64,000 nt of DNA from Spirochaetota bacterium (lineage in GTDB: Bacteria > Spirochaetota > UBA4802 > UBA5550): the NCBI GenBank assembly GCA_963664815.2, contig CAXXHB010000003.1, positions 4,128,001-4,192,000 of the forward strand, in the 5' to 3' direction. The position numbers were made by a program, and so were the translations under genes. This document shows, piece by piece, positions 5,250 to 19,403 of the stretch. Position 1 is the first letter of the stretch; every line of letters begins with the position of its first letter. The notes under the pieces were generated by a model. That model saw nothing but the letters and a program-made list of their open reading frames with translations, was not told the DNA's origin and searched no databases.

Positions 5250-5585
5250 TTCTATTCCGAACAGCATCTCTTGCAAAGCTAAGGTAACAGTAAAAAATTA
5301 CTTGTAATTCACATATAACCCATTATATATTACTACTGTATTTCATAGATTATCCATTTAGAAACCCTCTCCACGATGATTCTGGAGGTAACCATAAAAA
5401 ACATCTTGCTCAATTAATATAATAAAAAATCTATAACTGTTTTTTCACGAATTTATTAAATACTCATTATTTACCAAAAAACCAAAGAGAAAATTAAAAT
5501 GTTAAACCTGAATATTTATACAGATTTTTTCAGAAATAATACAATTCATAAATCTGCTATTCTATTTAAAAGAATTTTATCTTAT

Positions 5586-6203
5586 ATGAAAAAAATGAGA
5601 ACGTCAGCCATTTTTTTCAGTCTAACTGACAGAGGTGGAGAGAGAAAAAATTCCGCTAAAGAAGATGCCGATTTGATAAATGGGTTTTTAAAAGGCAATG
5701 AGAGGGATTTTGATACTCTTGTAGTAAGGTACAGAGATATGGTTTTTAATCTATGTTTGAATATTATGGGTGACTATGACGAAGCTGTTGACTGCAGTCA
5801 GGAGGCTTTCATTAAAATGTATAAAAACCTTCACAGGTTTGAGTTCAGATCCTCCCTGTCGACATGGCTCTATACCATATCCGTTAATACATGCAGGAAC
5901 GCCATTTCATCCTCATACAGGAAAAAGAGAATGTCTCTTGAAGGCTTTGAAAATACTCAAAGTACCGGAAATGAAAGTGCGCCTGAATTTATTTTTGAAA
6001 GAAGTGAGGGTGAAATTGAAGTCAGGAAGGCAATCACAAGGCTTCCCGAAGAGGAACGTATACTTATTGTAATGAGAGACCTCGAGGAGATGAGTTACGA
6101 AGAGATTACTGAAATAACCGGCGTTAAAGCCGGAACAGTGAAATCAAGAATTTCGCGCGGAAGGCACAGGCTCAGGGGCTTCCTGCAGGAGGTTATGTCA
6201 TGA
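5586..6203 (+). CDS. ECF sigma-70 factor
   Basis: Region 2 D.SQEAFIK...F...SSLSTWLY.I.VN; region 4 SYEEI.EI.G...GTVKSRISRGR; start codon uncertain. Confidence 0.92.
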   Translation: MKKMRTSAIFFSLTDRGGERKNSAKEDADLINGFLKGNERDFDTLVVRYRDMVFNLCLNIMGDYDEAVDCSQEAFIKMYKNLHRFEFRSSLSTWLYTISVNTCRNAISSSYRKKRMSLEGFENTQSTGNESAPEFIFERSEGEIEVRKAITRLPEEERILIVMRDLEEMSYEEITEITGVKAGTVKSRISRGRHRLRGFLQEVMS

Positions 6204-7192
6204 AATGCCGCGACGCCAAAGAAATGCTGCATTCATACTTCGACAATAAAACCGAACCTATGAATGATAAACTCCTCGCAGAACATATTAATTCATGTTC
6301 ACAATGCAGAGAGGAATACCATTTCCTGATCAAATACCGGGATTTGCTTAAAACAGTGAAACCGGTTTCTCCGCCGGGAAATTTCCTGTCTGAACTTCAC
6401 CGCAGGATTGAACTCGAAAAGAATAATAATCCTTTAAAAAAATTTATTACACATATAAAATCTTTTACTGACACATTTCATTTCCCTGTTGAAGCAGCAG
6501 GTGTACTTGCCATAGCCGCAGTTGTCTTTTTCCTCTACAAACCGTTTTTCACCGGGAAAACAGATGAGAGGGCTGCGGAATACAGAATTGAAACCCGCTC
6601 CGGAGAACTCGTATCAAAGAAAAATAAGAAGAACATCCCCGTAGAACCGCTAAGTTCTGTTAGCTTAAAAAAGATTCCGTCAGAAAAACAAGAATCCATA
6701 CTACTTAACGAAAACATAAAAAAAAGCAAAAAAGATAAAGGCCCCCTCTATGATTCAGATGATAATCTTTCAGTCGCAAGAGAAAAATCATATGACACGA
6801 CAAAGATTAATGAGATAAAAAAATCCCGGGAGCCGGAAAGTGAAAAAGAATTTATGAAAAGCAATGAGGAATCATTACCCTCAAAGAGCGTTGACAGCAA
6901 GAGTTTCGCCGGTAAAAGTTCTGCAGCTGCCAAAAAAGATTCAACACCGGTACAGGAGTCTGGTATCGACAGAATATTCAGGGAACACGAAGTTTTTGTT
7001 ATGAAAAAAGATTTATCCCGCGCAGACAGATTCTACTACCATATCAGAGTATATTCTGATAAACATTCACCCCTTATTAAAAACCTTAAAGAGAGTTTTA
7101 CAGTGGAGGAAAAAGTTTTAAAACAGGATAAGCTTTATTATGAAACTGAGCTGATTCTTAAAGAAAAAATAAAAAATGAGAACTTAAAATAA
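6200..7192 (+). CDS. Zinc-binding anti-sigma factor (zf-HC2) with TM helix
   Basis: N-terminal C...HxxxCxxC (EHINSCSQC); one TM; ATGA overlap with the sigma gene. Confidence 0.85.
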   Translation: MKCRDAKEMLHSYFDNKTEPMNDKLLAEHINSCSQCREEYHFLIKYRDLLKTVKPVSPPGNFLSELHRRIELEKNNNPLKKFITHIKSFTDTFHFPVEAAGVLAIAAVVFFLYKPFFTGKTDERAAEYRIETRSGELVSKKNKKNIPVEPLSSVSLKKIPSEKQESILLNENIKKSKKDKGPLYDSDDNLSVAREKSYDTTKINEIKKSREPESEKEFMKSNEESLPSKSVDSKSFAGKSSAAAKKDSTPVQESGIDRIFREHEVFVMKKDLSRADRFYYHIRVYSDKHSPLIKNLKESFTVEEKVLKQDKLYYETELILKEKIKNENLK

Positions 7193-7232
7193 GGCGGCAG
7201 TGTCAAAGAAATAAAATTACAGGAGGATCTCT

Positions 7233-8354
7233 ATGAAGCGTATATTATTAACATTCTGTATACTAATACCTTTAATATCAGCAATTCCTTCATATGCGGC
7301 TTGGGAAAAGGATGGCAAGGCTAAAATTCAGATAGCGCTGCTTCTTGACACAAGCAGCAGCATGGACGGATTGATTGACCAGGCAAGATCGCAGCTGTGG
7401 AAGGTAATTAATGAACTCGCCGTAGCACAGAAAGACGGGAAAGTTCCCTCGCTTGAAGTTTCTCTTTTTGAATACGGCAAAAGCAGCATCCCTTCGGGCG
7501 AAGGGTACCTGAGGATGGTGACATCGTTTACTCATGACCTTGACAGAATTTCATCAGAGCTCTACGCTCTTACTACCAATGGAGGTGATGAATACTGCGG
7601 CATGGTCATAGACTCGGCAACACGGAATCTTCAGTGGGACAGCAATGACAACAATCTTAAACTGATTTTTATCGCCGGCAATGAACCTTTTGACCAGGGA
7701 GAAATTAATTACAGGGAATCAATTCAAAGAGCAAAGAAAAAAGGAATTATTGTTAATACAATATTCTGCGGTGACAGAGAAACCGGTATAAGTTCGTGGT
7801 GGAAGGCAGGAGCAGATATTTCAGGAGGAAATTACATAAGCATCGACCAGAATATTCAGGTGAGGACCATTAACGCTCCCCAGGATGCAGAGCTGACCAG
7901 ACTTGGTGCTGAACTTAACAATACTTATATTTCCTTCGGCAAGGCAGGAGGCGACAAGAAAAAAGAGCAGGAGAAGCAGGATTATAACGCCATGTCAAAA
8001 TCTGCATCTATCGCTGCAGAAAGATCTATATCAAAAGCATCTGTTCATTACGATAATTCAGAATGGGATATAGTAGATGCAGCGTCAAAAGGAACAGTTG
8101 ATCTTAAAAATATGAAAAAGGATCAGCTCCCCTCCGAAATGAAAAGCATGGATTCAAAGGAACGAGAGGTTTACGTTAAAAATATGGAAAGGAAACGTGA
8201 AACAATAAAAGCCAGAATAAATAAACTGAATGCAGAAAGAAAGGCTTATATAGAAAAAATGGAAAGGGAAAATAAAGAGGAAAGTACTTTAGACTCGGCA
8301 ATTATAAAAACTGTACGGAAACAGGCAGAGGAAAAAAGTTTTAATTTTAAATAA
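7233..8354 (+). CDS. Secreted vWA-domain protein
   Basis: Signal peptide; MIDAS DTSSSM; TNGGDEYCG and IFIAGNEPF motifs. Confidence 0.88.
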   Translation: MKRILLTFCILIPLISAIPSYAAWEKDGKAKIQIALLLDTSSSMDGLIDQARSQLWKVINELAVAQKDGKVPSLEVSLFEYGKSSIPSGEGYLRMVTSFTHDLDRISSELYALTTNGGDEYCGMVIDSATRNLQWDSNDNNLKLIFIAGNEPFDQGEINYRESIQRAKKKGIIVNTIFCGDRETGISSWWKAGADISGGNYISIDQNIQVRTINAPQDAELTRLGAELNNTYISFGKAGGDKKKEQEKQDYNAMSKSASIAAERSISKASVHYDNSEWDIVDAASKGTVDLKNMKKDQLPSEMKSMDSKEREVYVKNMERKRETIKARINKLNAERKAYIEKMERENKEESTLDSAIIKTVRKQAEEKSFNFK

Positions 8355-8390: not shown

Positions 8391-8417
8391 CGAACGCGGG
8401 ATCCATACCCGCATTCG
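8391..8417 (+). terminator. GC-rich hairpin downstream of the vWA gene
   Basis: CGAACGCGGG...CCCGCATTCG imperfect stem; weak U tail. Confidence 0.35.
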
Positions 8418-8528
8418 GTTATTAAAACACGATTATCCCTTATGATTAAATGGAGCAGAGTTTAATGTTTTAAATTCTTTAAGTGAATTTTTATTGCATA
8501 ATTACACCAGATGTAATATTTTCCATTC

Positions 8529-9014
8529 ATGAAAAAATACATTACATTTCCTTTATTCATGCTGATCCTTATCCTGTCCTGCACGGGAAAAGATAGAGCT
8601 AACGACCAGAAAGCCCGTCTGAGATATATAAATAAAAAGTACATGTTCACCCTCCAGTTTCCAGAAAGATGGGGCTATTATATGGATTTCGAAAAAAAAG
8701 AGATAATTGACCCGCAGATTGTTATCCCGATTGTTTTTTTTGCACTCCCCACAAAATCACGGGAGTGGCAACCGTTAAATGTGCCGGCAGGATATAGTGA
8801 ACTTTTTTACGTAAGAATATTCACACACGATCAATGGAAATTATTTCAAGAAAAATATAAATCCGGTGAAGATTTTCCGCAAAACGACAGGCTTTTCACA
8901 ACTGGTAAAAACTTTGTGTATATGATCAGATATCCTGTTTCAATACCGGTTGACCTCTACCACTACATGAAAGAGTCCGAATCTGTTACTGCAACTTTTA
9001 AGATTATTAAATAA
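8529..9014 (+). CDS. Hypothetical lipoprotein
   Basis: MKK-hydrophobic-LILSC lipobox. Confidence 0.75.
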   Translation: MKKYITFPLFMLILILSCTGKDRANDQKARLRYINKKYMFTLQFPERWGYYMDFEKKEIIDPQIVIPIVFFALPTKSREWQPLNVPAGYSELFYVRIFTHDQWKLFQEKYKSGEDFPQNDRLFTTGKNFVYMIRYPVSIPVDLYHYMKESESVTATFKIIK

Positions 9015-9379
9015 CTGAACTGTTAACTTATCCGCCATTTACTATAACTTCAGGCTATTATAAAATATTTTTTAAAAAAGAGTTGAATGGACATAATCAT
9101 CTGTCATTATTGCCAGTGTTCTGATTAGACAGTTTGCAGTCAATACTATGGCAATTAATGAGATTGAGTTAATCTTATATTTTGATTTCGCATTACTTTG
9201 ACATTACTCATCACAGACCGCTCAACAAGCGTTAAAAAAGTTTCCCTGCCTGTATAGCGCCTGTAGAAATCAGCGAAGCCGATTGATACAAGATTTTAAT
9301 TCAGTCATGTAATGCTTTCAATAGTAATTGCTTAATTAATTTTTAAAAATAATTCATTTATAATTCAGGAGACATTATT

Positions 9380-10099
9380 ATGATAAAAAAGATATTCTTT
9401 ACGGGCATATTTTTGATTTTTACGATATCTCTTTACTCTCAGGCCCCGGGGACAAATAAAACCACCGTAACCGAAGATAAAAAAGCCACAACAGATGAAA
9501 AGAAGACTGTTACTGAAGAAAAGAAAAATACTCCTGCGGAAGTCAAAGCTTCATCTAATTCAGCAGCGCATGAATTTATCGGTAAACTTGGAACCGGTTA
9601 TGCTTCAGATCCGGGGAAATTCGGACTTGATTTGAGCCTTAACTACATTTTCAACCTTGATCCTGTTTTTGTTTTCGGATTTGAGGGTGATCTTTTCTGG
9701 ATAAAATGGAACAATGCACTCAGTGATGTTAATGCCGGGGGTTCAGCAAACGGTTCACTCAAGGCGGAAACAAACCTTTACACAATTCCGGTTTTTGCAA
9801 ACGCCCAGATAAGATTTCCTTTTCTCAGGGATAAGATATATGTAATGCCTGCAATAACCGTCGGACTCGGCTACTGTTTTATGGTTCTCGATTATGACTC
9901 TGATACTAACAAAGGAACCGATTTATACAGTGGTTTTGCATGGCAGGTACTCGCTTCTTTTTCCAATAAAATATATAAGGATTCAGCCGTTGAATTCGTA
10001 TTTGATCTGGGGTACAGAGGACTAAGTCCTGACAGAAATAATGTTGAAATAGACATGTCAGGATTCATTACAAGACTCGGCGTAAAAATGAATATGTAA
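9380..10099 (+). CDS. Outer-membrane beta-barrel protein (OmpA/OmpW-like)
   Basis: Signal peptide, low-complexity K/T/E linker, alternating amphipathic strands, terminal strand RLGVKMNM; AGGAG RBS. Confidence 0.7.
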   Translation: MIKKIFFTGIFLIFTISLYSQAPGTNKTTVTEDKKATTDEKKTVTEEKKNTPAEVKASSNSAAHEFIGKLGTGYASDPGKFGLDLSLNYIFNLDPVFVFGFEGDLFWIKWNNALSDVNAGGSANGSLKAETNLYTIPVFANAQIRFPFLRDKIYVMPAITVGLGYCFMVLDYDSDTNKGTDLYSGFAWQVLASFSNKIYKDSAVEFVFDLGYRGLSPDRNNVEIDMSGFITRLGVKMNM

Positions 10100-10109
10100 G
10101 GGAATAGCG

Positions 10110-11045
10110 ATGAAAAGAAAAGTTTTCCTTTTAATCTTAATTGTCTTTCTGTTATCCATCTTCTCATGTAAAGAAGAGAACAGAAAGATCAGGATAGGAA
10201 TTCTTCCGGTCATCGATACCCTTCCTCTTGTTGTTGCCGATTCAGAGGGTCTCTTTAAGAAAGAGGGACTTGATGTTGAACTTATTATATTCAACAGTGC
10301 CCTTGAAAGAGACGCGGCTTTTACTGCAGGAAATCTTGACGGGGCATTTGGAGATCTTATAAATTTCCTTCTCATGATAAAAAATGGTATCGATACACAG
10401 CTCGTCTGCGAATCATACCATACCTCAGATAAGGGAATAATGTTCGGATTGATGGCATCTCCGGGATCACCAATAAAAAACATCAACGAAATTAATAAAG
10501 AACAGATTGCAATATCGCGCGGTTCAATAATTGATTTTTTTCTTGATCAGATTGCTCTTTCTAAAAATGTTTCTCCTGAAAGTCTTAACAAACTTGAAGT
10601 AAAAACCATCCCTGTAAGATATCAGATGCTGATTTCCGGCTCGATTAAACTCGCGCTGCTGCCTGAACCTCTTGTCAGTAAAGGGATAAAAGACGGCGCA
10701 AAGCTTGTTGCTGACGACAGGGGTCTTAATACTACGGCTACAGTAATAATGTTCAGAAATGATTTTCTGGAAAACAACCGCATGCTCATGAAAAAATTTA
10801 TAAAGGCTTACAACGGCAGCGTCAGAAAAATAAACAGCTCCCCGGAAAAATTTAAAAATATTATGACAACCAAACTCCGGTTGCCGGCGGACATTAAAGA
10901 TACTTTTAAAACCCCTGTTTTCCATGAAGCTGTTATTCCCGCAGAAAAAGACGTAATGCTGGTATACAGCTGGATGAAAAAAAACGGTATGATTTCAATA
11001 CCCGTTGAGTATAAAAAACTTATCCGGCCGATTGACGAAAAGTGA
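10110..11045 (+). CDS. ABC transporter substrate-binding lipoprotein (NitT/TauT/SsuA-NMT1 type)
   Basis: Lipobox SIFSC; IRIG.LP..D.LPL.VA...GLF..EGLDVEL; LPEP motif. Confidence 0.9.
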   Translation: MKRKVFLLILIVFLLSIFSCKEENRKIRIGILPVIDTLPLVVADSEGLFKKEGLDVELIIFNSALERDAAFTAGNLDGAFGDLINFLLMIKNGIDTQLVCESYHTSDKGIMFGLMASPGSPIKNINEINKEQIAISRGSIIDFFLDQIALSKNVSPESLNKLEVKTIPVRYQMLISGSIKLALLPEPLVSKGIKDGAKLVADDRGLNTTATVIMFRNDFLENNRMLMKKFIKAYNGSVRKINSSPEKFKNIMTTKLRLPADIKDTFKTPVFHEAVIPAEKDVMLVYSWMKKNGMISIPVEYKKLIRPIDEK

Positions 11046-11773
11046 TCAGGCTAGAATCAGTCAACAAGAGATATTCCGGGACCACTATATTACAGGATAT
11101 CTCATTCAATATTGAGAACGGAAAGTCTCTGTCAATAATAGGGCCTTCCGGCTGCGGCAAAACTACTCTTCTCTACATGATTGCGGGACTGATCCGGCCT
11201 TCAGGCGGAACTATTCTGTTAAATAACAGGGAGATAAAAGCTCCTGATTCAAAAACAGCATTTATACTGCAGGATTACGGTCTCCTGCCATGGAAGAGTG
11301 TAATCCAGAACGTGTCGTTGGGAATGAAAATAAAGAAATATCCGAAAGAGATAATTGCTGCTGTAACAGAAAAAATTCTTCACGATCTCGGAATATACGC
11401 TCACCGGGACAAGTACCCCGCAACTTTAAGCGGCGGAGAGAAGCAGAGAGTTGCCATTGCACGCGCGCTATCAACCGAGCCTGAAATTCTTCTTATGGAT
11501 GAACCTTTCTCATCACTTGATACTCTTACGAGAGAAAAACTCCAGCAGGCAGTTTATGATATACACAGAAAGGGGAATCTTACACTGCTGACTGTAACCC
11601 ATAGTATTGAAGAAGCAGTTTTCCTTGGAGATACTATACTTGTTATGGCCGGTGGACCGGGGAGAATAATTTCCACTATCAGTAATTCTTCACGCAGAAG
11701 AAAAGATTTCAGAAACTCAGTGGAATTTTACTCAACCTGCGGTTCAATAAGAGGTATAATCGGAGATTTATGA
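11042..11773 (+). CDS. ABC transporter ATP-binding protein (NitT/TauT type)
   Basis: Walker A GPSGCGKTT, signature LSGGEKQR, Walker B LLMDEPFSSLD, VTHSIEEA. Confidence 0.95.
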   Translation: MIRLESVNKRYSGTTILQDISFNIENGKSLSIIGPSGCGKTTLLYMIAGLIRPSGGTILLNNREIKAPDSKTAFILQDYGLLPWKSVIQNVSLGMKIKKYPKEIIAAVTEKILHDLGIYAHRDKYPATLSGGEKQRVAIARALSTEPEILLMDEPFSSLDTLTREKLQQAVYDIHRKGNLTLLTVTHSIEEAVFLGDTILVMAGGPGRIISTISNSSRRRKDFRNSVEFYSTCGSIRGIIGDL

Positions 11774-13407
11774 TACAGAGGATCCCCTTTATTAATCTTT
11801 TTATGACTGTTTCAGCTATCTTTATTATATGGAAGATTGCTTCACTGGCAGCTTCTTCCCCCGTTCTGCCGTCTCCGGAAAATGTTTTTATAGCCTTTAT
11901 CAATGAAGCGCGGATGCCGCTGTTCTGGAGTCATTTTGGAATAAGTGCATGGAGGGTATGTGCAAGTATTGCTATTTCATGGATTATTGCATTCCCATTG
12001 GGGGCGGTTCTAGGGTACAGCTCCGCTATGGATAAAATTTTTTCACCGGTTGTTTATCTTGCTTATCCTGTGCCGAAAATGGTTCTGCTGCCGATTGTTG
12101 TTTTGTTTTTTGGTTTAGGGGACATATCAAAGGTTATTCTTATTACGCTTATCCTCTTTTTTCAGATTCTTGTAGCTGTACGTGACGGAGTGCGCTCGGT
12201 CAACTCCAGATATTACGATTCGGTAGAATCAATGGGTGGGAGTATTTACGATATTTTCATGCACGTTGTGATTCCTGCCGCTCTCCCTTATAGTTTCACG
12301 GCAATAAGAATATCTGCGGGGACGGCGATCTCTGTATTATTCTTTGCTGAATCTTTCGCCACATCAAGCGGCCTGGGATATCTTATTATGGACGCATGGG
12401 CGCGGGCAGATTATATTATGATTTTTGTAGGCATAACAGGAATGAGCATCATGGGACTTATCCTGTTTATTATATTCTCTCTGCTTGAGAAAAAATTTTG
12501 TGCATGGAACTTTACAATGGAAAATGATAAATCACCGGCTGAGGGCATCCTCTCCAAAACTGTAACCTATTCAAAAATGATAAAACTATCGCATACACTT
12601 TTTGCTCTCCCCTTTGCCCTGTCGGGCCTGGTGCTTGCACTGCGGGAGCATAATGTTACACTCCCCATGGTATTCTGGATAATTATAGCAATGGTGGGGG
12701 CGCGTTCAGCAGCCATGGGATTTAACCGTATTGCTGATGCCGATATTGATGCAGAAAATCCGCGAACTGCAATACGTGAGATCCCGTCGGGAAATATTTC
12801 AAGAAAAGAAGCCCTCATCTTTACAATATTTTCTTCAGCCCTGCTGGTTTTTTCTGCGGCAATGCTTTCCGAAATCTGTCTGTGGCTTTCATTCCCGCTT
12901 CTCCTCTTTCTTTTTTTCTATTCTTACACAAAGCGCTTTACATGGCTTGCCCATATCTACCTCGGTTTCGCTATAGGGCTTGCGCCAGTGGCTGTATGGA
13001 TTGCTATTGCCGGCATCCCTGAGTTACCGGTTATACTCCTTGCCCTTGTCCTGATGACACACATTGCCGGATTTGACATACTCTATTCATGCCAGGATAT
13101 TGAGTTTGACAGGAAAAAAAATCTTTTTTCCATACCGGCGCGATTCGGCATAAAAAAGGCTTTTTTATTCTCCGCAGCACTTCATATACTGACAACTGCT
13201 CTGCTTTCTCTTCTCTACTTTACTGCAGGATTTGGAATTTACTACTTTATTTTTATAATTGTAATTGCCATACTATATATAATAGAACATAAAATCGTTA
13301 ACCCCGATGATATTTCAAATATCAATATTGCATTTTTTCATATTAACAGTATTATATCTGTAGCTGTATTTGCTGCTGTACTAACAGGATATCTTACAGG
13401 CAGATGA
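11770..13407 (+). CDS. Fusion of ABC permease (N-terminal ~245 aa) and MqnP/UbiA-family polyprenyltransferase
   Basis: Permease EAA-like loop YYDSVESMGGS..IFMHVVIPAALP; then IK.SHTLFALPFA, NRIADADID..NPRT..R.IPSG, YSYTKRFT and FDILYSCQD.EFD motifs; no stop codon between the domains. Confidence 0.88.
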   Translation: MIQRIPFINLFMTVSAIFIIWKIASLAASSPVLPSPENVFIAFINEARMPLFWSHFGISAWRVCASIAISWIIAFPLGAVLGYSSAMDKIFSPVVYLAYPVPKMVLLPIVVLFFGLGDISKVILITLILFFQILVAVRDGVRSVNSRYYDSVESMGGSIYDIFMHVVIPAALPYSFTAIRISAGTAISVLFFAESFATSSGLGYLIMDAWARADYIMIFVGITGMSIMGLILFIIFSLLEKKFCAWNFTMENDKSPAEGILSKTVTYSKMIKLSHTLFALPFALSGLVLALREHNVTLPMVFWIIIAMVGARSAAMGFNRIADADIDAENPRTAIREIPSGNISRKEALIFTIFSSALLVFSAAMLSEICLWLSFPLLLFLFFYSYTKRFTWLAHIYLGFAIGLAPVAVWIAIAGIPELPVILLALVLMTHIAGFDILYSCQDIEFDRKKNLFSIPARFGIKKAFLFSAALHILTTALLSLLYFTAGFGIYYFIFIIVIAILYIIEHKIVNPDDISNINIAFFHINSIISVAVFAAVLTGYLTGR

Positions 13408-13417
13408 AAGAAGGTTT

Positions 13418-14002
13418 ATGAAAAAAACAATAATTACAGGTATAACAGGGGCTTCAGGAAGCATATATGCCCTCAACTTTCTCAGACATGCTTCAGCGCA
13501 TGGAATCGATTTACGTATTATTGTATCATCTAACGGAGAAGCTGTGTTTAAACATGAAACCGGGATGAGTGTATCGGAAGCCATCATGGGACTTGACGTT
13601 TTCCCGAAGGAGACCGGTTCAATAAGACTTTACGATAACAATGACATGTTTGCGGATATAGCAAGCGGCACACATAAGACAGACGGCATGGTTATTGTAC
13701 CATGTTCCATGAAAACACTTTCAGGTATTGCAAACGGCTATTCCTCATCCCTGCTGGAACGCGCAGCAGATGTAATGCTTAAAGAAAGGAGAGACCTTAT
13801 CCTCACTTTAAGAGAGACTCCTCTCAGTCTTGTTCATTTGAGGAACATGGTTCACGCAGCAGAGGCCGGGGCCATAATACTCCCTGCAGCACCCGGGTTA
13901 TATCACAAACCTGAAACAATTGATGACCTTGCAGATTTTATTACCGGGAAAATATTCGATCAGCTTGGAATAGAACACTCTCTGAATACTGTCTGGAGAT
14001 AG
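13418..14002 (+). CDS. ubiX: Flavin prenyltransferase UbiX (MqnM-like)
   Basis: GITGASG, IASG, PCSMKTL, RAADV.LKERR.LIL..RETP motifs. Confidence 0.93.
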   Translation: MKKTIITGITGASGSIYALNFLRHASAHGIDLRIIVSSNGEAVFKHETGMSVSEAIMGLDVFPKETGSIRLYDNNDMFADIASGTHKTDGMVIVPCSMKTLSGIANGYSSSLLERAADVMLKERRDLILTLRETPLSLVHLRNMVHAAEAGAIILPAAPGLYHKPETIDDLADFITGKIFDQLGIEHSLNTVWR

Positions 14003-14057
14003 CCTTTTATTTATAGTTTATATAAATAATAAGAAAATTAAAAACTGGAAATCAAAC

Positions 14058-15896
14058 ATGAAAAAAAACCACAGAAATCTCACCGGCTTTATAAATGAGC
14101 TTGAAAAAGAAAATGAATTAATCCGGTTTAACAAGCCGGTATCAAATATTCTTGAAATCACAGAAATCACAGACCGCATGTCAAAACTCCCCGGAGGAGG
14201 CAAGGCCTTACTATTTGAAAACGTTACCGGGTATGATTATCCCGTTCTTATAAACCAGTTCGGCAGCATCAAACGGATTAACATGGCTTTTGGAAGCGAG
14301 AGCCTCGACCTGCTGGCAGGAAGGCTTCAGAATATAATAAATACAAAGCCGCCAAAAACTTTTATTGAAAAAGTCAGGCTCATCCCTGAACTTATAAAAT
14401 ATTCACAGTTTCTTCCGCGCACAATTAAAGGGAAAGCCCCGTGCCAGGAGATTATACATACCGGGAATGATGTAGATCTCGGCAAGATGCCGGTTCTTTT
14501 CTGCTGGCCCGGTGACGGAGGCCCCTTCATCACACTCCCGGTTGTTTTCACAAAGGGATTTAGCGACGGTAAACACAACGCCGGAATGTACAGGATGCAG
14601 GTTTATGACAGAAACACAACAGGTATGCACTGGCATATACACAAGGACGGGGCACACCATTACCACGAATATCTCAGGGAGGGGAAAAGGATGGAGGTTG
14701 CTGTCGCTATAGGTACTGACCCGGCGGTAACATATTCTGCCACTGCTCCTCTGCCTCGCGGAGTTGATGAAATGCTTCTGGCAGGGTTTATAAGACAAAA
14801 ACCGGTTGAAATGGTAAAATGCATCACTGTTGATATCGAAGTACCTGCTGAATCCGAGTTCATTATTGAGGGATATGTTGATCCCGGTGAATCCAGGATA
14901 GAAGGACCCTTCGGCGATCATACCGGGTATTATTCACTCAAAGGGGATTACCCCGTTTTCCATGTTACAGCCGTTACAAGCAGAAAAAACCCGGTGTACA
15001 GCGCAACAATTGTCGGCAAACCACCGATGGAGGACTGCTACTTGGCTCTCGCCACGGAAAGAATATTTCTACCCATGATAAAAACTGTTCTTCCGGAAAT
15101 TATCGATTATATGCTGCCCTGGGAAGGTGTATTTCACAATATTGCGGTTGTTGCAATTGAAAAGGAATTTCCAGGCCACGCGGTGAAAGTTATGAACGGG
15201 CTGTGGGGTTCCGGTCAGATGAGTTTCGCTAAAATTCTGGTTATGATAGATGAGCCCTCTCTCCTCTCTGACAGAACCGGGCTTATGATGCATATACTAA
15301 ACACTGTGGATTTGTCATCAGACATAATTCTTACAAAAGGGATACTCGATGTGCTTGACCACTCTGCAGACAAACCTCTTTACGGTTCAAAACTCGGGAT
15401 AGATGTGACAAAGCGTATAAAAGGGGAGGATAAAAGATCCGACAACTATATACATGGAAAATCAGATTATAAAAAAATTGAAAGCCTCGCGTTGGCTCTC
15501 GACAGAAAAATTACAGCTTCAAGAACGTTATTTGATGAATGCAGAAACAGGATTGTTATGCTCTCAGTAAAAAAAGATAAAAAAGCAAACTCCCATTATT
15601 TTTTAAAAAAAATCCTCAACTCCTCTCTTGCTCATGAAGGATTAATTATAATATTCAATCATGATATAGATCTGAACAATGATTCTTTTACTCTCTGGAA
15701 AGTATTTAATAATGTCGATCCTGTCCGGGATATTACTCAGGAAAAGGGATGCATGATAATTGACGCTACTAAAAAAGGAATCAGTGACGGGCATACCAGG
15801 GAATGGCCGGATGATATTGAAATGACAAAAGAAGTAATTGAAAAAGTGGATTATATATTAAAAGATGAACCGGAATTTGAACATATTCCTTCGTAA
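14058..15896 (+). CDS. UbiD-family decarboxylase (menaquinone biosynthesis decarboxylase, MqnL-like)
   Basis: N.GMYRMQV, MHWHIHKDGA.H, EGPFGDHTGYY, GKPPMED, DVLDHS motifs; long form with extended C-terminus. Confidence 0.92.
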   Translation: MKKNHRNLTGFINELEKENELIRFNKPVSNILEITEITDRMSKLPGGGKALLFENVTGYDYPVLINQFGSIKRINMAFGSESLDLLAGRLQNIINTKPPKTFIEKVRLIPELIKYSQFLPRTIKGKAPCQEIIHTGNDVDLGKMPVLFCWPGDGGPFITLPVVFTKGFSDGKHNAGMYRMQVYDRNTTGMHWHIHKDGAHHYHEYLREGKRMEVAVAIGTDPAVTYSATAPLPRGVDEMLLAGFIRQKPVEMVKCITVDIEVPAESEFIIEGYVDPGESRIEGPFGDHTGYYSLKGDYPVFHVTAVTSRKNPVYSATIVGKPPMEDCYLALATERIFLPMIKTVLPEIIDYMLPWEGVFHNIAVVAIEKEFPGHAVKVMNGLWGSGQMSFAKILVMIDEPSLLSDRTGLMMHILNTVDLSSDIILTKGILDVLDHSADKPLYGSKLGIDVTKRIKGEDKRSDNYIHGKSDYKKIESLALALDRKITASRTLFDECRNRIVMLSVKKDKKANSHYFLKKILNSSLAHEGLIIIFNHDIDLNNDSFTLWKVFNNVDPVRDITQEKGCMIIDATKKGISDGHTREWPDDIEMTKEVIEKVDYILKDEPEFEHIPS

Positions 15897-16134
15897 TTGT
15901 TTTTTATAACAGTTACATCTGGAAACCCTATTTGGCTGAATTCTCTTTGATCGAGTTTGCATATACGCAGGTAAAAATAATACTGTTATACTGACCGATC
16001 AATGAGCACTTAATATGCAATTTTCTGTTAAGCATACGCAATTTTTTGCATATGGCTACCGTTGTCTCCCTGTTAAATGTGGCACGAATTATACCTGAAT
16101 TATATAAATCGATATCCTCATTATAAAAAAATTA

Positions 16135-16150
16135 TTGACATGAAAGTCAG
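16135..16150 (+). promoter_or_regulatory. Possible repressor operator overlapping a TTGACA -35 box upstream of the SDR gene
   Basis: TGAC-ATGAAA-GTCA dyad. Confidence 0.3.
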
Positions 16151-16288
16151 CAATGGGCATGAAAATAAGTAATTCCACTATGTAATTTCAGATGAAGTTG
16201 TGCAATCTCGATATTTGAGATTTTATAAACTTAATTTTTAGCAGAAATTCATAGAATGAAAAAAATTTCAGATAAAGAGGTATATAAA

Positions 16289-17107
16289 ATGAGCTCATAC
16301 AATTTCAAGGGAAAAATCGCCGTAGTAACCGGCGCTGCTTCAGGTATAGGCCGCGAGCTGGCTCTTCAGCTTTCAAAAGAGGGCTGTATAGTAGCAGCAG
16401 CTGATTATAATAAAAAAGATCTCGAAGAAACAGTAAAAATGGTAAAAGATGCCGGCGGGCAGGCCAGCGCACATGAAGTTGATATTTCCAATGCTGCAGT
16501 TGTAACTAAATTCGCAGCTGATGTTAAGAAAAAATATGGCAGTATTGATATCCTCATTAACAACGCAGGTGTAACACTTTTTGGAAAATTTGACGAACTT
16601 GCTCAAAAAGATATGGAATGGATTATGGATATCAATTACTGGGGTGCAATTTATATGACAAGGGCTTTTATGCCGGAAATTAAGAACAAACCGGAATCAT
16701 ACCTTGTAAACGTCGCAAGTATTTTCAGTGTGGTTGGTACAGGAAACCAGTCTGCCTACAGTGCGACAAAATTTGCCCTCAGAGGATTTACAGAAGCTCT
16801 TACTGATGAACTACAGAAATTTCCCATCACTGTTATGAGTGTTATCCCAGGCGGAATCAAAACCAATCTCGGTAAAAATGCACGTTTTGTTAAAAACGGT
16901 GTAGTATTGAAAGATACAGAAAAACTCGCAAAAAGAATGGAAAAAATCGGAAGAACAACTGGCGCAGAAGCTGCTGCCGCAATAATCAAAGGAATGAAGA
17001 AAAGAAAAGAGCGCATACTTATCGGTTCTGATGCATGGATAATCCAGACAATCCAGAGATTTGCTCCATCCAAATACAACAGGGTTCTTGGAAAAATATT
17101 CGGCTAA
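16289..17107 (+). CDS. Short-chain dehydrogenase/reductase
   Basis: TGAASGIG, NNAG, YSATK; start MSSYNF after GAGG. Confidence 0.93.
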   Translation: MSSYNFKGKIAVVTGAASGIGRELALQLSKEGCIVAAADYNKKDLEETVKMVKDAGGQASAHEVDISNAAVVTKFAADVKKKYGSIDILINNAGVTLFGKFDELAQKDMEWIMDINYWGAIYMTRAFMPEIKNKPESYLVNVASIFSVVGTGNQSAYSATKFALRGFTEALTDELQKFPITVMSVIPGGIKTNLGKNARFVKNGVVLKDTEKLAKRMEKIGRTTGAEAAAAIIKGMKKRKERILIGSDAWIIQTIQRFAPSKYNRVLGKIFG

Positions 17108-17339: not shown

Positions 17340-18785
17340 TTATTGCGCTCCGGATTGTTTCAGTATCTTAACTATTTCATCCTTGCCTTTGGTAGTTGCA
17401 TATATAAGTGCGGTTTTACCCTTTTTGTCTTTCATATTAACATCAGCTCCTTTTTCAAGCAATGCTTTCACGAGATCAGTTCTTCCGAAATAGCAAGCAA
17501 TCATCAGAGAGGTTTGACCTTCTCTGTCTTTCGCGTTAATATCTGCACCTTTTTCAATCAGATATTTCAGTGCTTCAGGTTTTCCGCTAATGATTAGATT
17601 GATCAGGGCGGTTTTACCCTTTTTGTCTTTCACGTTGACATCAGCACCTTTATCCATCAACATCTGCAAAACCTCTGTTTGCATCTTTACTATATCCTGG
17701 TCTACTCCGGGATAGATAATGTAATTTTCGAGTACGAATGCATGTATCAATGCAGTTTGACCGGCAAGGTCTTTCAGCTTGACATCTGCTCCCCTTTCCA
17801 GTAAAATTCTGACAACTGCGGTTTGCATCTTTCTGATTTCTGCATCAATTCCGCCCGGATTCACACTTATCATCAATGCAGTCTGGCCCTTTTTATCTTT
17901 TGTATTTATACCTGCACCTTTATCAAGTAATAGTTTTACAGTTTCGGTCATACCGGCGGCAGCCGCGTAAAACAGAGCGGTTTTCCCTTCATTGTCAATT
18001 GCGTTAATATCGATGCCTCTATCCAGCAGCAGATTTACTGCTTCAGACTGCCCTCTGGAAATTGCAGCCATAAGTGCGTTCTGCCCATCTTTGTCTTTTG
18101 CACTAATATCAGCCCCTTTATCAAGCAACATTTTCACTAAATTATAAGAAATACCTTCCCGATTATTCCGTTGCGCAGCATATAGCAATGGGGTTTTACC
18201 ATATTTGTCTCTTACATTAACATCAACACCTCTATCAAGAAATACTTTAATTGCCTCAGGTTCTCCTCGTCTGGCACATATCACTGTCAATGGAGTTTGA
18301 TCCAATGTATTTTGCACGTTAATATCGGCACCCTTTTCAAGCAGCATGTTGAGAATTTTAGCACCCGCCAGCCTGTCAGCAAGATAATTCCCCCCTGAAA
18401 CACGCAATATTGCAGTCAGGCCATTATTATCTTTTGCGTTAACATCAGCACCTTTATCAAGTAGCCTCTTTACAGCATTAATATTGGTAAAACCGACCGC
18501 AATCATCAATGCAGTATTGCCAGCTTTGTCTTTTGCATTGACATCGGCGCCTTTATCAATTAATATTTTTATAAGTTCATCATCTCCGTAATTACTCATT
18601 GTAATCAATGCTGTCAGCCCATTTCCGTCTCTTGCATTTACATCTGCACCGTTATTCAGTGCTTTAATAATTCCTCCCCTGTTTTCGTTTTCGAACGCTT
18701 TTACTAAATCTTCAGTAGAGCCTGCGTATACAGGCATGAAAGGAATAAGACCAAACAGCAAAAGGCAATTAACTATTCTTTTCAC
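17340..18785 (-). CDS. Secreted ankyrin-repeat protein (~13 repeats)
   Basis: Repeated LL.KGADVN.KD..G.TAL..A units; GTG start at 18785 after GAAGGAG; signal peptide. Confidence 0.92.
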   Translation of the reverse strand: MKRIVNCLLLFGLIPFMPVYAGSTEDLVKAFENENRGGIIKALNNGADVNARDGNGLTALITMSNYGDDELIKILIDKGADVNAKDKAGNTALMIAVGFTNINAVKRLLDKGADVNAKDNNGLTAILRVSGGNYLADRLAGAKILNMLLEKGADINVQNTLDQTPLTVICARRGEPEAIKVFLDRGVDVNVRDKYGKTPLLYAAQRNNREGISYNLVKMLLDKGADISAKDKDGQNALMAAISRGQSEAVNLLLDRGIDINAIDNEGKTALFYAAAAGMTETVKLLLDKGAGINTKDKKGQTALMISVNPGGIDAEIRKMQTAVVRILLERGADVKLKDLAGQTALIHAFVLENYIIYPGVDQDIVKMQTEVLQMLMDKGADVNVKDKKGKTALINLIISGKPEALKYLIEKGADINAKDREGQTSLMIACYFGRTDLVKALLEKGADVNMKDKKGKTALIYATTKGKDEIVKILKQSGAQ

Positions 18786-19403
18786 AATATTCTCTCCTTC
18801 TAATATCCAGTTATCCCGAGAAATGTATAACTTAAAGTCGCTTTGCAAAACCTGGTATCGTCTTTAAACACGACTTCAGTTTTTTTCAGGCATAAATTAT
18901 TTTCTCTTTAAAATAAAAAAAACAATGTTAAAAAAGTGCCTTACCAGAAACAATAGTTATAACAATATAGTTATTGTATATAAACTGCAAATTCAATAAA
19001 AAATATATTCCTGAGCATTGACTCTTTGAACTTTTACTATTTTAATAATCGTCGGCATAACCACATCTTAATTGATTTTCAATATAAAACAAATTACTTT
19101 TAAAATCAGATTAATATTACATCTATCCGGATTTGTTCATAATTTAAAATGATCGGCAGGAAACTGTAGACGGTTTACTGACCCTTTACTGACAGTATAT
19201 TAACAGTAGTTTACTTATGTCTGAAAGGGTGAGCATACTGTTTGAATACTGTCAATAGACTCTCTGTCAAATAATAAGCGTTAAATAACAAACGGTACAT
19301 GTAAAAACATGCACTGATTAAAAACTTGAAAAAAAATAAACATCAATGTTTATATAGAAAACATTTATCATTTCCAGTAAATAATGCAGCAGGAGTTTTC
19401 ATA

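Follow-up and report, generated by a model that had tools for sequence, protein, structure and literature searches.

ThiY is the binding protein of an importer that salvages the pyrimidine precursor of thiamine, which the cell then finishes into the vitamin. SsuABC and TauABC are ATP-binding cassette (ABC) importers of the NitT/TauT type with a three-part architecture, and PqqT binds a polycyclic quinone carboxylate from the environment (PMC11331073). Menaquinone (vitamin K2) is the main respiratory quinone of anaerobes; pathways reduced to its late steps have long been noted, and exchange of precursors has been proposed. We describe a candidate uptake system for such a precursor: a six-gene operon at positions 9380-15896 of a 64,000-nucleotide stretch of DNA (hereafter, the window) from a Spirochaetota bacterium. 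The window corresponds to C3:4128001-4192000 of a 5.2-Mb genome (G000; assembly GCA_963664815.2) that is 96% complete. The six open reading frames (ORFs) encode a barrel protein (ORF1), a substrate-binding protein (SBP; ORF2), an ATPase (ORF3), a permease that continues in the same polypeptide into an MqnP-type prenyltransferase (ORF4), UbiX (ORF5), and the UbiD-family decarboxylase MqnL (ORF6). We consider it probable that the operon specifies an ATP-driven importer of a soluble menaquinone head-group precursor, coupled to the enzymes that finish it. As ligand, 1,4-dihydroxy-6-naphthoate is the likeliest candidate; the 2-carboxy isomer, 1,4-dihydroxy-2-naphthoate (DHNA), is a possible second one.

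The transporter of this operon resembles SsuABC and TauABC in its three-part architecture and its folds. The binding protein, in an AlphaFold2 model with a predicted local distance difference test (pLDDT) score of 93.4, adopts a two-lobe class II binding-protein fold, for which the best structural match is SsuA (2x26; template-modelling [TM] score 0.80); other matches include 3un6 (0.75), TauA (6ssy; 0.71), PqqT (9b1u; 0.70), ThiY (3ix1; 0.67), and Thi5 (4h6d; 0.67). Among the fold matches are binders of thiamine, pyrimidine, sulfonate, bicarbonate, and pyrroloquinoline quinone (PQQ). Unlike SsuABC and TauABC, the operon has a permease fused to a prenyltransferase and scores far below the cut-offs of those families, and the partners of its family are quinone enzymes rather than sulfonate monooxygenases. 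In logic, the closest analogue is ThiXYZ; the operon differs in its proposed ligand class and in the fusion of the transporter to the consuming enzyme. PqqT has the same fold; its PQQ is a finished cofactor, taken up without a linked prenyltransferase, whereas the ligand proposed here is a precursor.

Streptococci keep MenA only and use exogenous DHNA. Likewise, lactic acid bacteria and Porphyromonas are ring-less users of DHNA from cross-feeding, a way of life that a cassette of transporter, MenA, and MenG, described below, would fit. DHNA stimulates Porphyromonas gingivalis (PMC12502741), and a paper on Lactiplantibacillus plantarum describes the uptake pathways for DHNA as "yet to be identified" (PMC10746273). 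In the futalosine pathway, late steps are assigned to MqnP, MqnL, and MqnM (PMC4746308). The UbiA, UbiD, and UbiX homologues of the operon are of that type, except that its MqnP makes up the C-terminal half of a protein that begins as an ABC permease. Ravcheev & Thiele 2016 predicted that soluble menaquinone precursors have importers, did not identify them, and explicitly call for their discovery (PMC4746308). Neither salvage nor MqnP comes up in the main text of a 2026 survey of quinone pathways (PMC13386864). Full-text literature searches, with subscription journals and supplements outside their reach, turned up no account of an ABC importer for a naphthoate or menaquinone precursor or of a permease-MqnP fusion. 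The parts of the operon belong to known families; what appears to be new is the substrate class, the recurrence of the cassette, and the covalent joining of permease and prenyltransferase.

What points to menaquinone is the company that the transporter keeps. A survey of gene neighbourhoods, of the kind that the first-pass annotation of the window had in mind, showed late menaquinone genes recurring, in several phyla, in linkage with relatives of the binding protein and the permease. In all six fused metagenome loci, the order is SBP-ATPase-fusion and late menaquinone genes are linked; UbiX and UbiD come next in two. Among 301 Desulfobacterota genomes, 43 carry the permease subfamily, and the loci retrieved display two further layouts. 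The order MqnL-MqnP-SBP-ATPase-permease occurs in seven Desulfobacterota loci and in one metagenome locus, L155 (MqnL 636 bits). In eleven Desulfobacterota loci, SBP-ATPase-permease, with or without a leading TetR gene, is followed by MenG and/or MenA: 10 of them have a MenA-like gene, 7 have MenG, and 7 have TetR. Three MenA genes scanned against TIGR00751 reach 103-120 bits (cut-off 102), and one MenG gene scanned against TIGR01934 (MenG/UbiE) reaches 225 bits (cut-off 158). The permease is present in 19 of 251 Dehalococcoidia genomes, and every one of these 19 loci is linked to late menaquinone genes: 13 read MqnL-MqnP-UbiX-SBP-ATPase-permease (TetR upstream in 7), two read TetR-MqnL-MqnP-SBP-ATPase-permease-MenG, and four are partial or cut off by contig ends. 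Each cassette would thus combine a transporter with the enzymes, most of them if not all, that take a dihydroxynaphthoate to (demethyl)menaquinone: MqnP and MqnL, with or without UbiX and MenG, in the case of the 6-carboxy isomer, and MenA and MenG in that of the 2-carboxy isomer.

The trees argue for repeated assembly. They are midpoint-rooted, because no paralogous permease or binding protein was found in the home genome to serve as an outgroup, and those of the permease and of MqnP come from quick searches. In the SBP and permease trees, sequences group by layout: the MenA-linked sequences form a single clade (100/99), the fused ones form another, which takes in an unfused copy from the spirochaete genome G011, and the MqnL-MqnP-linked type makes up two or three basal groups. 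ABC-linked MqnPs, in contrast, are scattered among the MqnPs of de novo clusters. The pairing of transporter and prenyltransferase therefore has more than one origin: the transporter was combined several times with different MqnP lineages and with the distantly related MenA, a pattern that chance adjacency would not give.

Genomes that carry the transporter mostly lack the genes for making the ring. Of the 301 genomes in the Desulfobacterota sample, 153 have MqnA/D and 12 have MenB over cut-off. Carriers of the permease have MqnA/D in 5 of 43 and MenB in 0 of 43; non-carriers have MqnA/D in 148 and MenB in 12, and one or the other in 160 of 258. The nominal Fisher p value for 5/43 against 160/258 is 3e-10, a value that exaggerates significance, since the sampled genomes share ancestry and come without completeness values. 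MqnA/D occurs in 1 of the first 10 Desulfobacterota genomes with MqnP beside the permease, and neither MenB nor MenD passes its cut-off in four MenA-layout genomes. Dehalococcoidia carriers have MqnA/D in only 1 of 19 and MenB in none of the 19, and in 16 of the 19 no MqnC/E-type match was found at E ≤ 1e-40. Seven of these carriers have one contig of about whole-genome size, so assembly gaps are an improbable cause of the missing ring genes. The background of MqnA/D in Dehalococcoidia is itself low (15/251); the point there is not enrichment, it is that ring-less genomes keep a late-step cassette around a transporter. For many Desulfobacterota and Dehalococcoidia, gene content suggests that the ring comes from such a cassette alone.

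In the home genome, the situation is different. The first-pass annotation had proposed that the cell scavenges an aromatic acid made by neighbours and finishes it into menaquinone. That idea stands for the module and its family, given the linkage and the mostly ring-less carriers, and is overstated for this cell: a whole-genome search reveals a complete upper futalosine pathway, one of the two findings that the first-pass annotation had said would together refute its idea. The cluster lies on the same contig, ~3.1 Mb from the operon (C3:~997300-1001900), and contains an mqnE-like gene, mqnA/D, an mqnC-like radical SAM gene, a nucleosidase gene, and a second mqnA/D. The only PF02621 (MqnA/D) matches of the genome are the two at C3:998409-999164 and C3:1001098-1001868, MqnC/E-type matches span C3:997390-1000378, and a profile search of the genome gave no MenB or MenD match that reached cut-off. 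The fused MqnP must serve the home-made precursor too, since it is the only MqnP-type match in the genome. For the last step, a UbiE-like gene (C3:595549-596229) is 34% identical to a cassette MenG. A MenA-type gene (G000:C3:464180-465067) is 56% identical to a gene of G011 that passes TIGR00751; with this orphan DHNA prenyltransferase, the home genome could make use of imported DHNA as well.

Among 61 relatives, the fusion is found in 7 genomes and the binding protein in 11. Two of the relatives illustrate late-step-only states. G011 (98% complete) has the barrel, SBP, ATPase, and permease genes in order and two MenA-type genes; MqnP, MqnL, MqnA-E, MenB, and MenD were not found in it. G025 (95% complete) combines MqnP and MqnL with ABC genes at a distant site; MqnA/C/D/E were not found. 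In G011 (locus L072, G011:C21 2414-9184), the next gene after the transporter codes for a QueE-like radical SAM protein; after it come a molybdopterin oxidoreductase in two frames (153 + 609 aa, possibly with a selenocysteine codon), a 4Fe-4S protein, and NuoL/NuoH-like subunits, an arrangement that looks formate hydrogenlyase-like. The radical SAM gene was considered as a lead; as it is QueE-like and has genes of formate-dehydrogenase/hydrogenlyase type next to it, it was treated as unrelated.

The individual proteins bear out an importer. ORF2 matches the Pfam families NMT1_2 (55 bits, cut-off 24.7) and NMT1 (48.9 bits), and its N-terminus, read from the sequence, has a hydrophobic segment (residues 1-25) that includes SIFSC with Cys-20, which fits a lipoprotein export signal. 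It misses the SsuA_fam model TIGR01728 (92.6 bits, cut-off 163.5), as does a homologue from Dehalococcoidia (104.3 bits). A sequence search of the PDB returned one weak match for the binding protein (3qsl, E 6.6e-4) and no match for the barrel. The binding-protein family comprises 650 representative relatives at E ≤ 1e-30. Across all three layouts, 23 positions are conserved, among them one arginine and several aromatic residues: G30, P33, L38, P39, F49, F61, A64, A70, D82, F112, S136, E163, R170, Q172, L174, A182, P187, L188, G196, D203, P259, P277, and W288. Positions 36 and 37 alone differ consistently between the MqnP-linked and MenA-linked types. This pattern fits one ligand class. We also considered that the binding protein might be a disguised enzyme of the MqnA/MqnD type, and rejected the idea: PF02621 matches only the two genes at ~1.0 Mb, and AF1704 (1zbm) and 7ahr/7an7 reach TM scores of 0.62-0.65, against 0.80 for SsuA. 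We take 7ahr/7an7 to be MqnA; the structure listing says just "Enzyme of biosynthetic pathway". Five relatives of the binding protein (P0332, P0335, P0349, P0354, and P0361) are 607-657 aa long with two matched stretches each, and look like tandem-duplicated binding proteins within a single polypeptide.

ORF3 matches PF00005 (115.5 bits) and contains GPSGCGKT, LSGGEKQR, and ILLMDEP, presumably the Walker A, signature, and Walker B motifs. In ORF4, BPD_transp_1 (PF00528) covers residues 75-239 (70.2 bits, cut-off 26.4) and UbiA (PF01040) residues 279-528 (184.6 bits). About six hydrophobic segments precede the linker (hydropathy), and a stretch of the form D-S-x-x-S-M-G...PAALP, which we take to be the coupling (EAA-type) loop of the permease, is conserved in an alignment of 17 fusion proteins. 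For the ATPase and permease, TauB, TauC, and SsuC models come first among the named NCBIfam families, far below their cut-offs (TauC 104 vs 342). With a BPD_transp_1 membrane subunit, an exported binding protein, and the ATPase motifs, the operon has the components of a type I ABC importer.

The prenyltransferase half of ORF4 passes the UbiA-like model TIGR01475 (285.8 bits, cut-off 180.8) and falls under three specific MqnP cut-offs (MqnP_DT 267.1/430, MqnP_SCO4491 229/420, MqnP_Cj_Hp 222/375). It contains NRIADADID and YSCQDIEFD, presumably the two catalytic Asp-rich motifs of the UbiA superfamily, within which N319-D323-D327 and D443-D447 are invariant in the 17 fusion proteins. Among unfused proteins, its nearest relatives (59-60% identity) belong to complete mqn clusters, for example mqnE-mqnA/D-mqnC-mqnA/D-mqnB-mqnP-ubiX-ubiD in locus L085; in this genome it adjoins UbiX and MqnL. 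We treat the domain as an MqnP on the grounds of context and descent rather than model score. The fusion is not an assembly artefact, because 118 of the best 120 database relatives, at ~545 aa and down to ~50% identity, carry both PF00528 and PF01040. Source names of the fused relatives include Spirochaetota, Thermodesulfobacteriota, Syntrophorhabdaceae, Pseudomonadota, and Methanomassiliicoccales. A complex prediction for the permease domain against the MqnP domain scored 0.00, and, run without controls, speaks neither for nor against contact. Among Desulfobacterota, MqnP matches also occur in long frames of 566-821 aa (G349, G321, G133, G262, G201, G168, and others), which hints at other MqnP fusions with an unassigned partner domain.

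UbiX makes prenylated flavin mononucleotide (prFMN) for UbiD-type decarboxylases, and the last two genes of the operon encode such a pair. ORF5 is a Flavoprotein/UbiX family member (TIGR00421 199.6 bits, cut-off 108.9; NF004685 208.1 bits, cut-off 188). ORF6 has the UbiD_N, UbiD, and UbiD_C Pfam domains and clears the equivalog cut-off of TIGR03701, "menaquinone biosynthesis decarboxylase" (632.9 bits vs 495.9). Its C-terminal ~160 residues (15420-15896, residues ~455-612) extend beyond the TIGR03701 match (11-445) and have no assigned domain. Long MqnL proteins (600-633 aa) are found in de novo clusters also; those in the cassettes of Desulfobacterota and Dehalococcoidia are short (~490 aa).

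OmpW-like barrels let small hydrophobic molecules through the outer membrane. The first gene of the operon was called an outer-membrane barrel in the first-pass annotation, and the call is confirmed. ORF1 begins with a signal peptide and continues through a disordered, low-complexity linker rich in K, T, and E (~residues 22-62) into a beta-barrel of eight strands (residues 64-238). In the AlphaFold2 model the strands are long and the barrel part has pLDDT >90, Foldseek matches it to NspA (E 1.7e-7), the OmpA transmembrane domain, OmpX, Ail, and OmpW, and 9 of 89 homologues match PF13505; ORF1 itself matches no Pfam or NCBIfam family at E ≤ 0.001. Where a source is named, these homologues are all from spirochaetes. 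A role for the barrel in uptake, as implied by the same annotation, did not gain support: its basis is adjacency, within one spirochaete family. In the spirochaete relatives, the gene always stands immediately upstream of the operon, and it remains where the ABC genes (G003, G007) or MqnP (G011) are missing; beside the cassette in metagenome, Desulfobacterota, and Dehalococcoidia loci outside the spirochaete family, it was not found. Whether the barrel belongs to the functional unit is thus uncertain, and by analogy with OmpW a contribution to uptake is possible. A paralogue lies on another contig (G000:C2:259522-260010; 37% identity across 169 residues).

Type I ABC importers consist of two membrane domains and two ATPases. 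In the mechanism that we propose, the periplasmic lipoprotein would bind the aromatic acid, and the permease domains, powered by the ATPase, would carry it across the inner membrane. Since there is a single permease gene, the membrane part would be a homodimer, with two MqnP domains per transporter. The coupling loop, the permease C-terminus, and the Asp-rich loops of the UbiA domain are all predicted to be cytoplasmic, because six hydrophobic segments precede the linker. MqnP would therefore sit at the cytoplasmic end of each permease domain, where the released substrate could be prenylated at once; such a fusion would serve the immediate capture of a scarce, oxidation-prone substrate. UbiX would give prFMN to MqnL, which would remove the carboxyl group before or after prenylation, as expected from the families, and a UbiE/MenG-like methyltransferase encoded elsewhere, for which C3:595549-596229 is the candidate, would complete menaquinone. 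In the home genome, import would act as a supplement, either by scavenging from neighbours or by recapture of a leaked intermediate.

A number of observations weigh against the import of a dihydroxynaphthoate for finishing. The home genome makes the ring precursor itself, and the anti-correlation with de novo synthesis is absent from its lineage: MqnA/D is present in 6 of 11 ABC carriers and 30 of 50 other relatives. In G003 and G007, of the same genus, the locus reads barrel-MqnP-UbiX-UbiD, with the three transporter parts cleanly missing and the rest visibly unchanged. This loss is secondary, because their MqnP nests inside the fused clade of the quick tree; since these genomes lack the ABC genes and the home genome has a de novo pathway, the importer appears in this lineage to be a dispensable, supplementary add-on. 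G016 (91% complete, 450 contigs) has the fused operon without UbiX or UbiD, and no MqnL, MqnA/D, or MqnC/E was found in it; it may either form a prenylated acid without a decarboxylase or have a pathway in decay. Both the transporter and de novo genes are present in G243 and G273. In G243, a search of ~5-7 kb to each side of the ABC genes turned up no late menaquinone gene; in G273, no linked one was seen, and the stretch stops at a contig end just past the permease. Kinship and missing completeness in the Desulfobacterota and Dehalococcoidia samples inflate the weight of the p value. By overall fold, the binding protein is nearest to sulfonate binders; the two separating positions are thin support for different isomers in different layouts; and the assignment to Methanomassiliicoccales comes from database source names only.

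These points bear on several rival explanations. That the transporter imports another small molecule, such as 4-hydroxybenzoate, which would be prenylated to another product, or a flavin or dimethylallyl building block of prFMN, is unlikely in our estimate. NMT1-type binding proteins do take very different ligands, as the fold matches illustrate, the prenyltransferase domain stays below all three MqnP cut-offs, and UbiX and UbiD are adjacent in this operon. Yet the linked MenA (TIGR00751) and MqnL (TIGR03701) exceed the cut-offs of naphthoate-pathway equivalogs, the nearest unfused relatives of the UbiA domain are in complete mqn clusters, and a role in supplying prFMN cannot cover all linkages, as the MenA/MenG layout is without UbiX and UbiD. 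Slightly less probable still is recapture: in this cell, the system would chiefly take back oxidation-prone precursor that the cell itself has made and lost, by the same chemistry but with no cross-feeding. The de novo pathway here and in 6 of 11 ABC-carrying relatives, the dispensability of the ABC genes in G003 and G007, and a fusion that would favour immediate capture are all in keeping with it; most carriers in other phyla, however, cannot make the ring, so the family is used more often to take up precursor from outside.

The remaining rivals concern direction and meaning. The fused enzyme makes the first lipid-anchored intermediate, and the partners are a lipoprotein and an adjacent outer-membrane protein, so the ABC system might instead act on product: menaquinone or its prenylated intermediates would leave the inner membrane, pass to the lipoprotein, and travel on to the periplasm or outer membrane. 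We regard this as improbable: BPD_transp_1 systems that depend on a binding protein are, to our knowledge, importers only, de novo producers would need export equally and yet are depleted among carriers (5/43 vs 160/258), and the barrel is missing from the cassette outside one spirochaete family. The least probable rival is that adjacency and fusion are meaningless, and that an ordinary sulfonate/taurine-type importer became fused to MqnP by accident. The best NCBIfam matches of the transporter parts are indeed taurine/sulfonate models, and the fold is nearest to SsuA, but those scores are far under the cut-offs (SsuA_fam 92.6/163.5, TauC 104/342), the linkage recurs in four layouts, three phyla, and unrelated MqnP lineages plus MenA, and the fusion is conserved to ~50% identity. 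Import and finishing of a dihydroxynaphthoate thus remains the reading that we favour.

The first-pass annotation described six co-oriented genes with short gaps and overlaps, and the ORF coordinates (Table 1) agree, with spacings of 10, -4, -4, 10, and 55 nt. It was also right that the window contains no ring-building genes, as the PF02621 and MqnC/E-type matches are all near C3:~1.0 Mb. An Rfam scan of 8400-16400 found no riboswitch in the 365-nt upstream spacer, only two sub-threshold chance matches. Promoter-like sites number 22, against 20.1 +/- 3.6 in shuffled sequences; terminator-like sites number 13, against 6.2 +/- 2.7, and the gaps between the six genes hold none.

Table 1. Features of the operon, in window positions.
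Feature	Position	Strand	Length	Remarks
ORF1, outer-membrane barrel protein	9380-10099	+	239 aa	
ORF2, NMT1/SsuA-type binding lipoprotein	10110-11045	+	311 aa	Pfam
ORF3, ABC ATPase	11042-11773	+	243 aa	GTG start; 4-nt overlaps on both sides
ORF4, permease-prenyltransferase fusion	11770-13407	+	545 aa	Single frame
ORF4, permease domain (residues 1-250)	11770-12519	+		TauC/SsuC-like; PF00528
ORF4, MqnP-type UbiA domain (residues 262-545)	12553-13407	+		PF01040, TIGR01475
ORF5, UbiX/MqnM flavin prenyltransferase	13418-14002	+	194 aa	TIGR00421, NF004685
ORF6, MqnL (UbiD family) decarboxylase	14058-15896	+	612 aa	TIGR03701

Upstream and in the same orientation (5499-8354) are genes for an ECF-type sigma factor (5499-6203), a zf-HC2 anti-sigma-like protein (6200-7192), and a VWA-domain protein (7233-8354); in the relatives, no link of these genes to the operon was seen. 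Between them and the barrel gene, 8529-9014 encodes a predicted lipoprotein of 161 aa without a family match, which is kept upstream of the barrel gene in 8 of 14 relatives' loci, ~0.15-3.3 kb away and at 38-67% identity. Downstream, on the minus strand, 17340-18848 encodes a 502-aa protein made almost entirely of ankyrin repeats (Ank_2, 308.7 bits), which is unusual for a free-living bacterium.

We put at about even the chance that these genes represent the first recognisable importer family for dihydroxynaphthoates, spread as portable import-prenylate-(decarboxylate)-(methylate) cassettes of which one version is fused and would work vectorially. To join a primary transporter to the enzyme that uses up its cargo, as this fusion does, is unusual. 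The family supplies concrete, testable genes; the binding protein is small and soluble, and suits binding assays and crystallography. As a genomic marker for quinone-ring auxotrophy in uncultured lineages, the cassette could explain failures of cultivation and suggest supplements for media. If the reading is true, trade in quinone rings would be a routine dependency in anoxic communities, and many members of the Dehalococcoidia and Desulfobacterota, as well as, going by source names, of the methanogenic Methanomassiliicoccales, would be auxotrophic for the ring and complete a precursor made by a neighbour.

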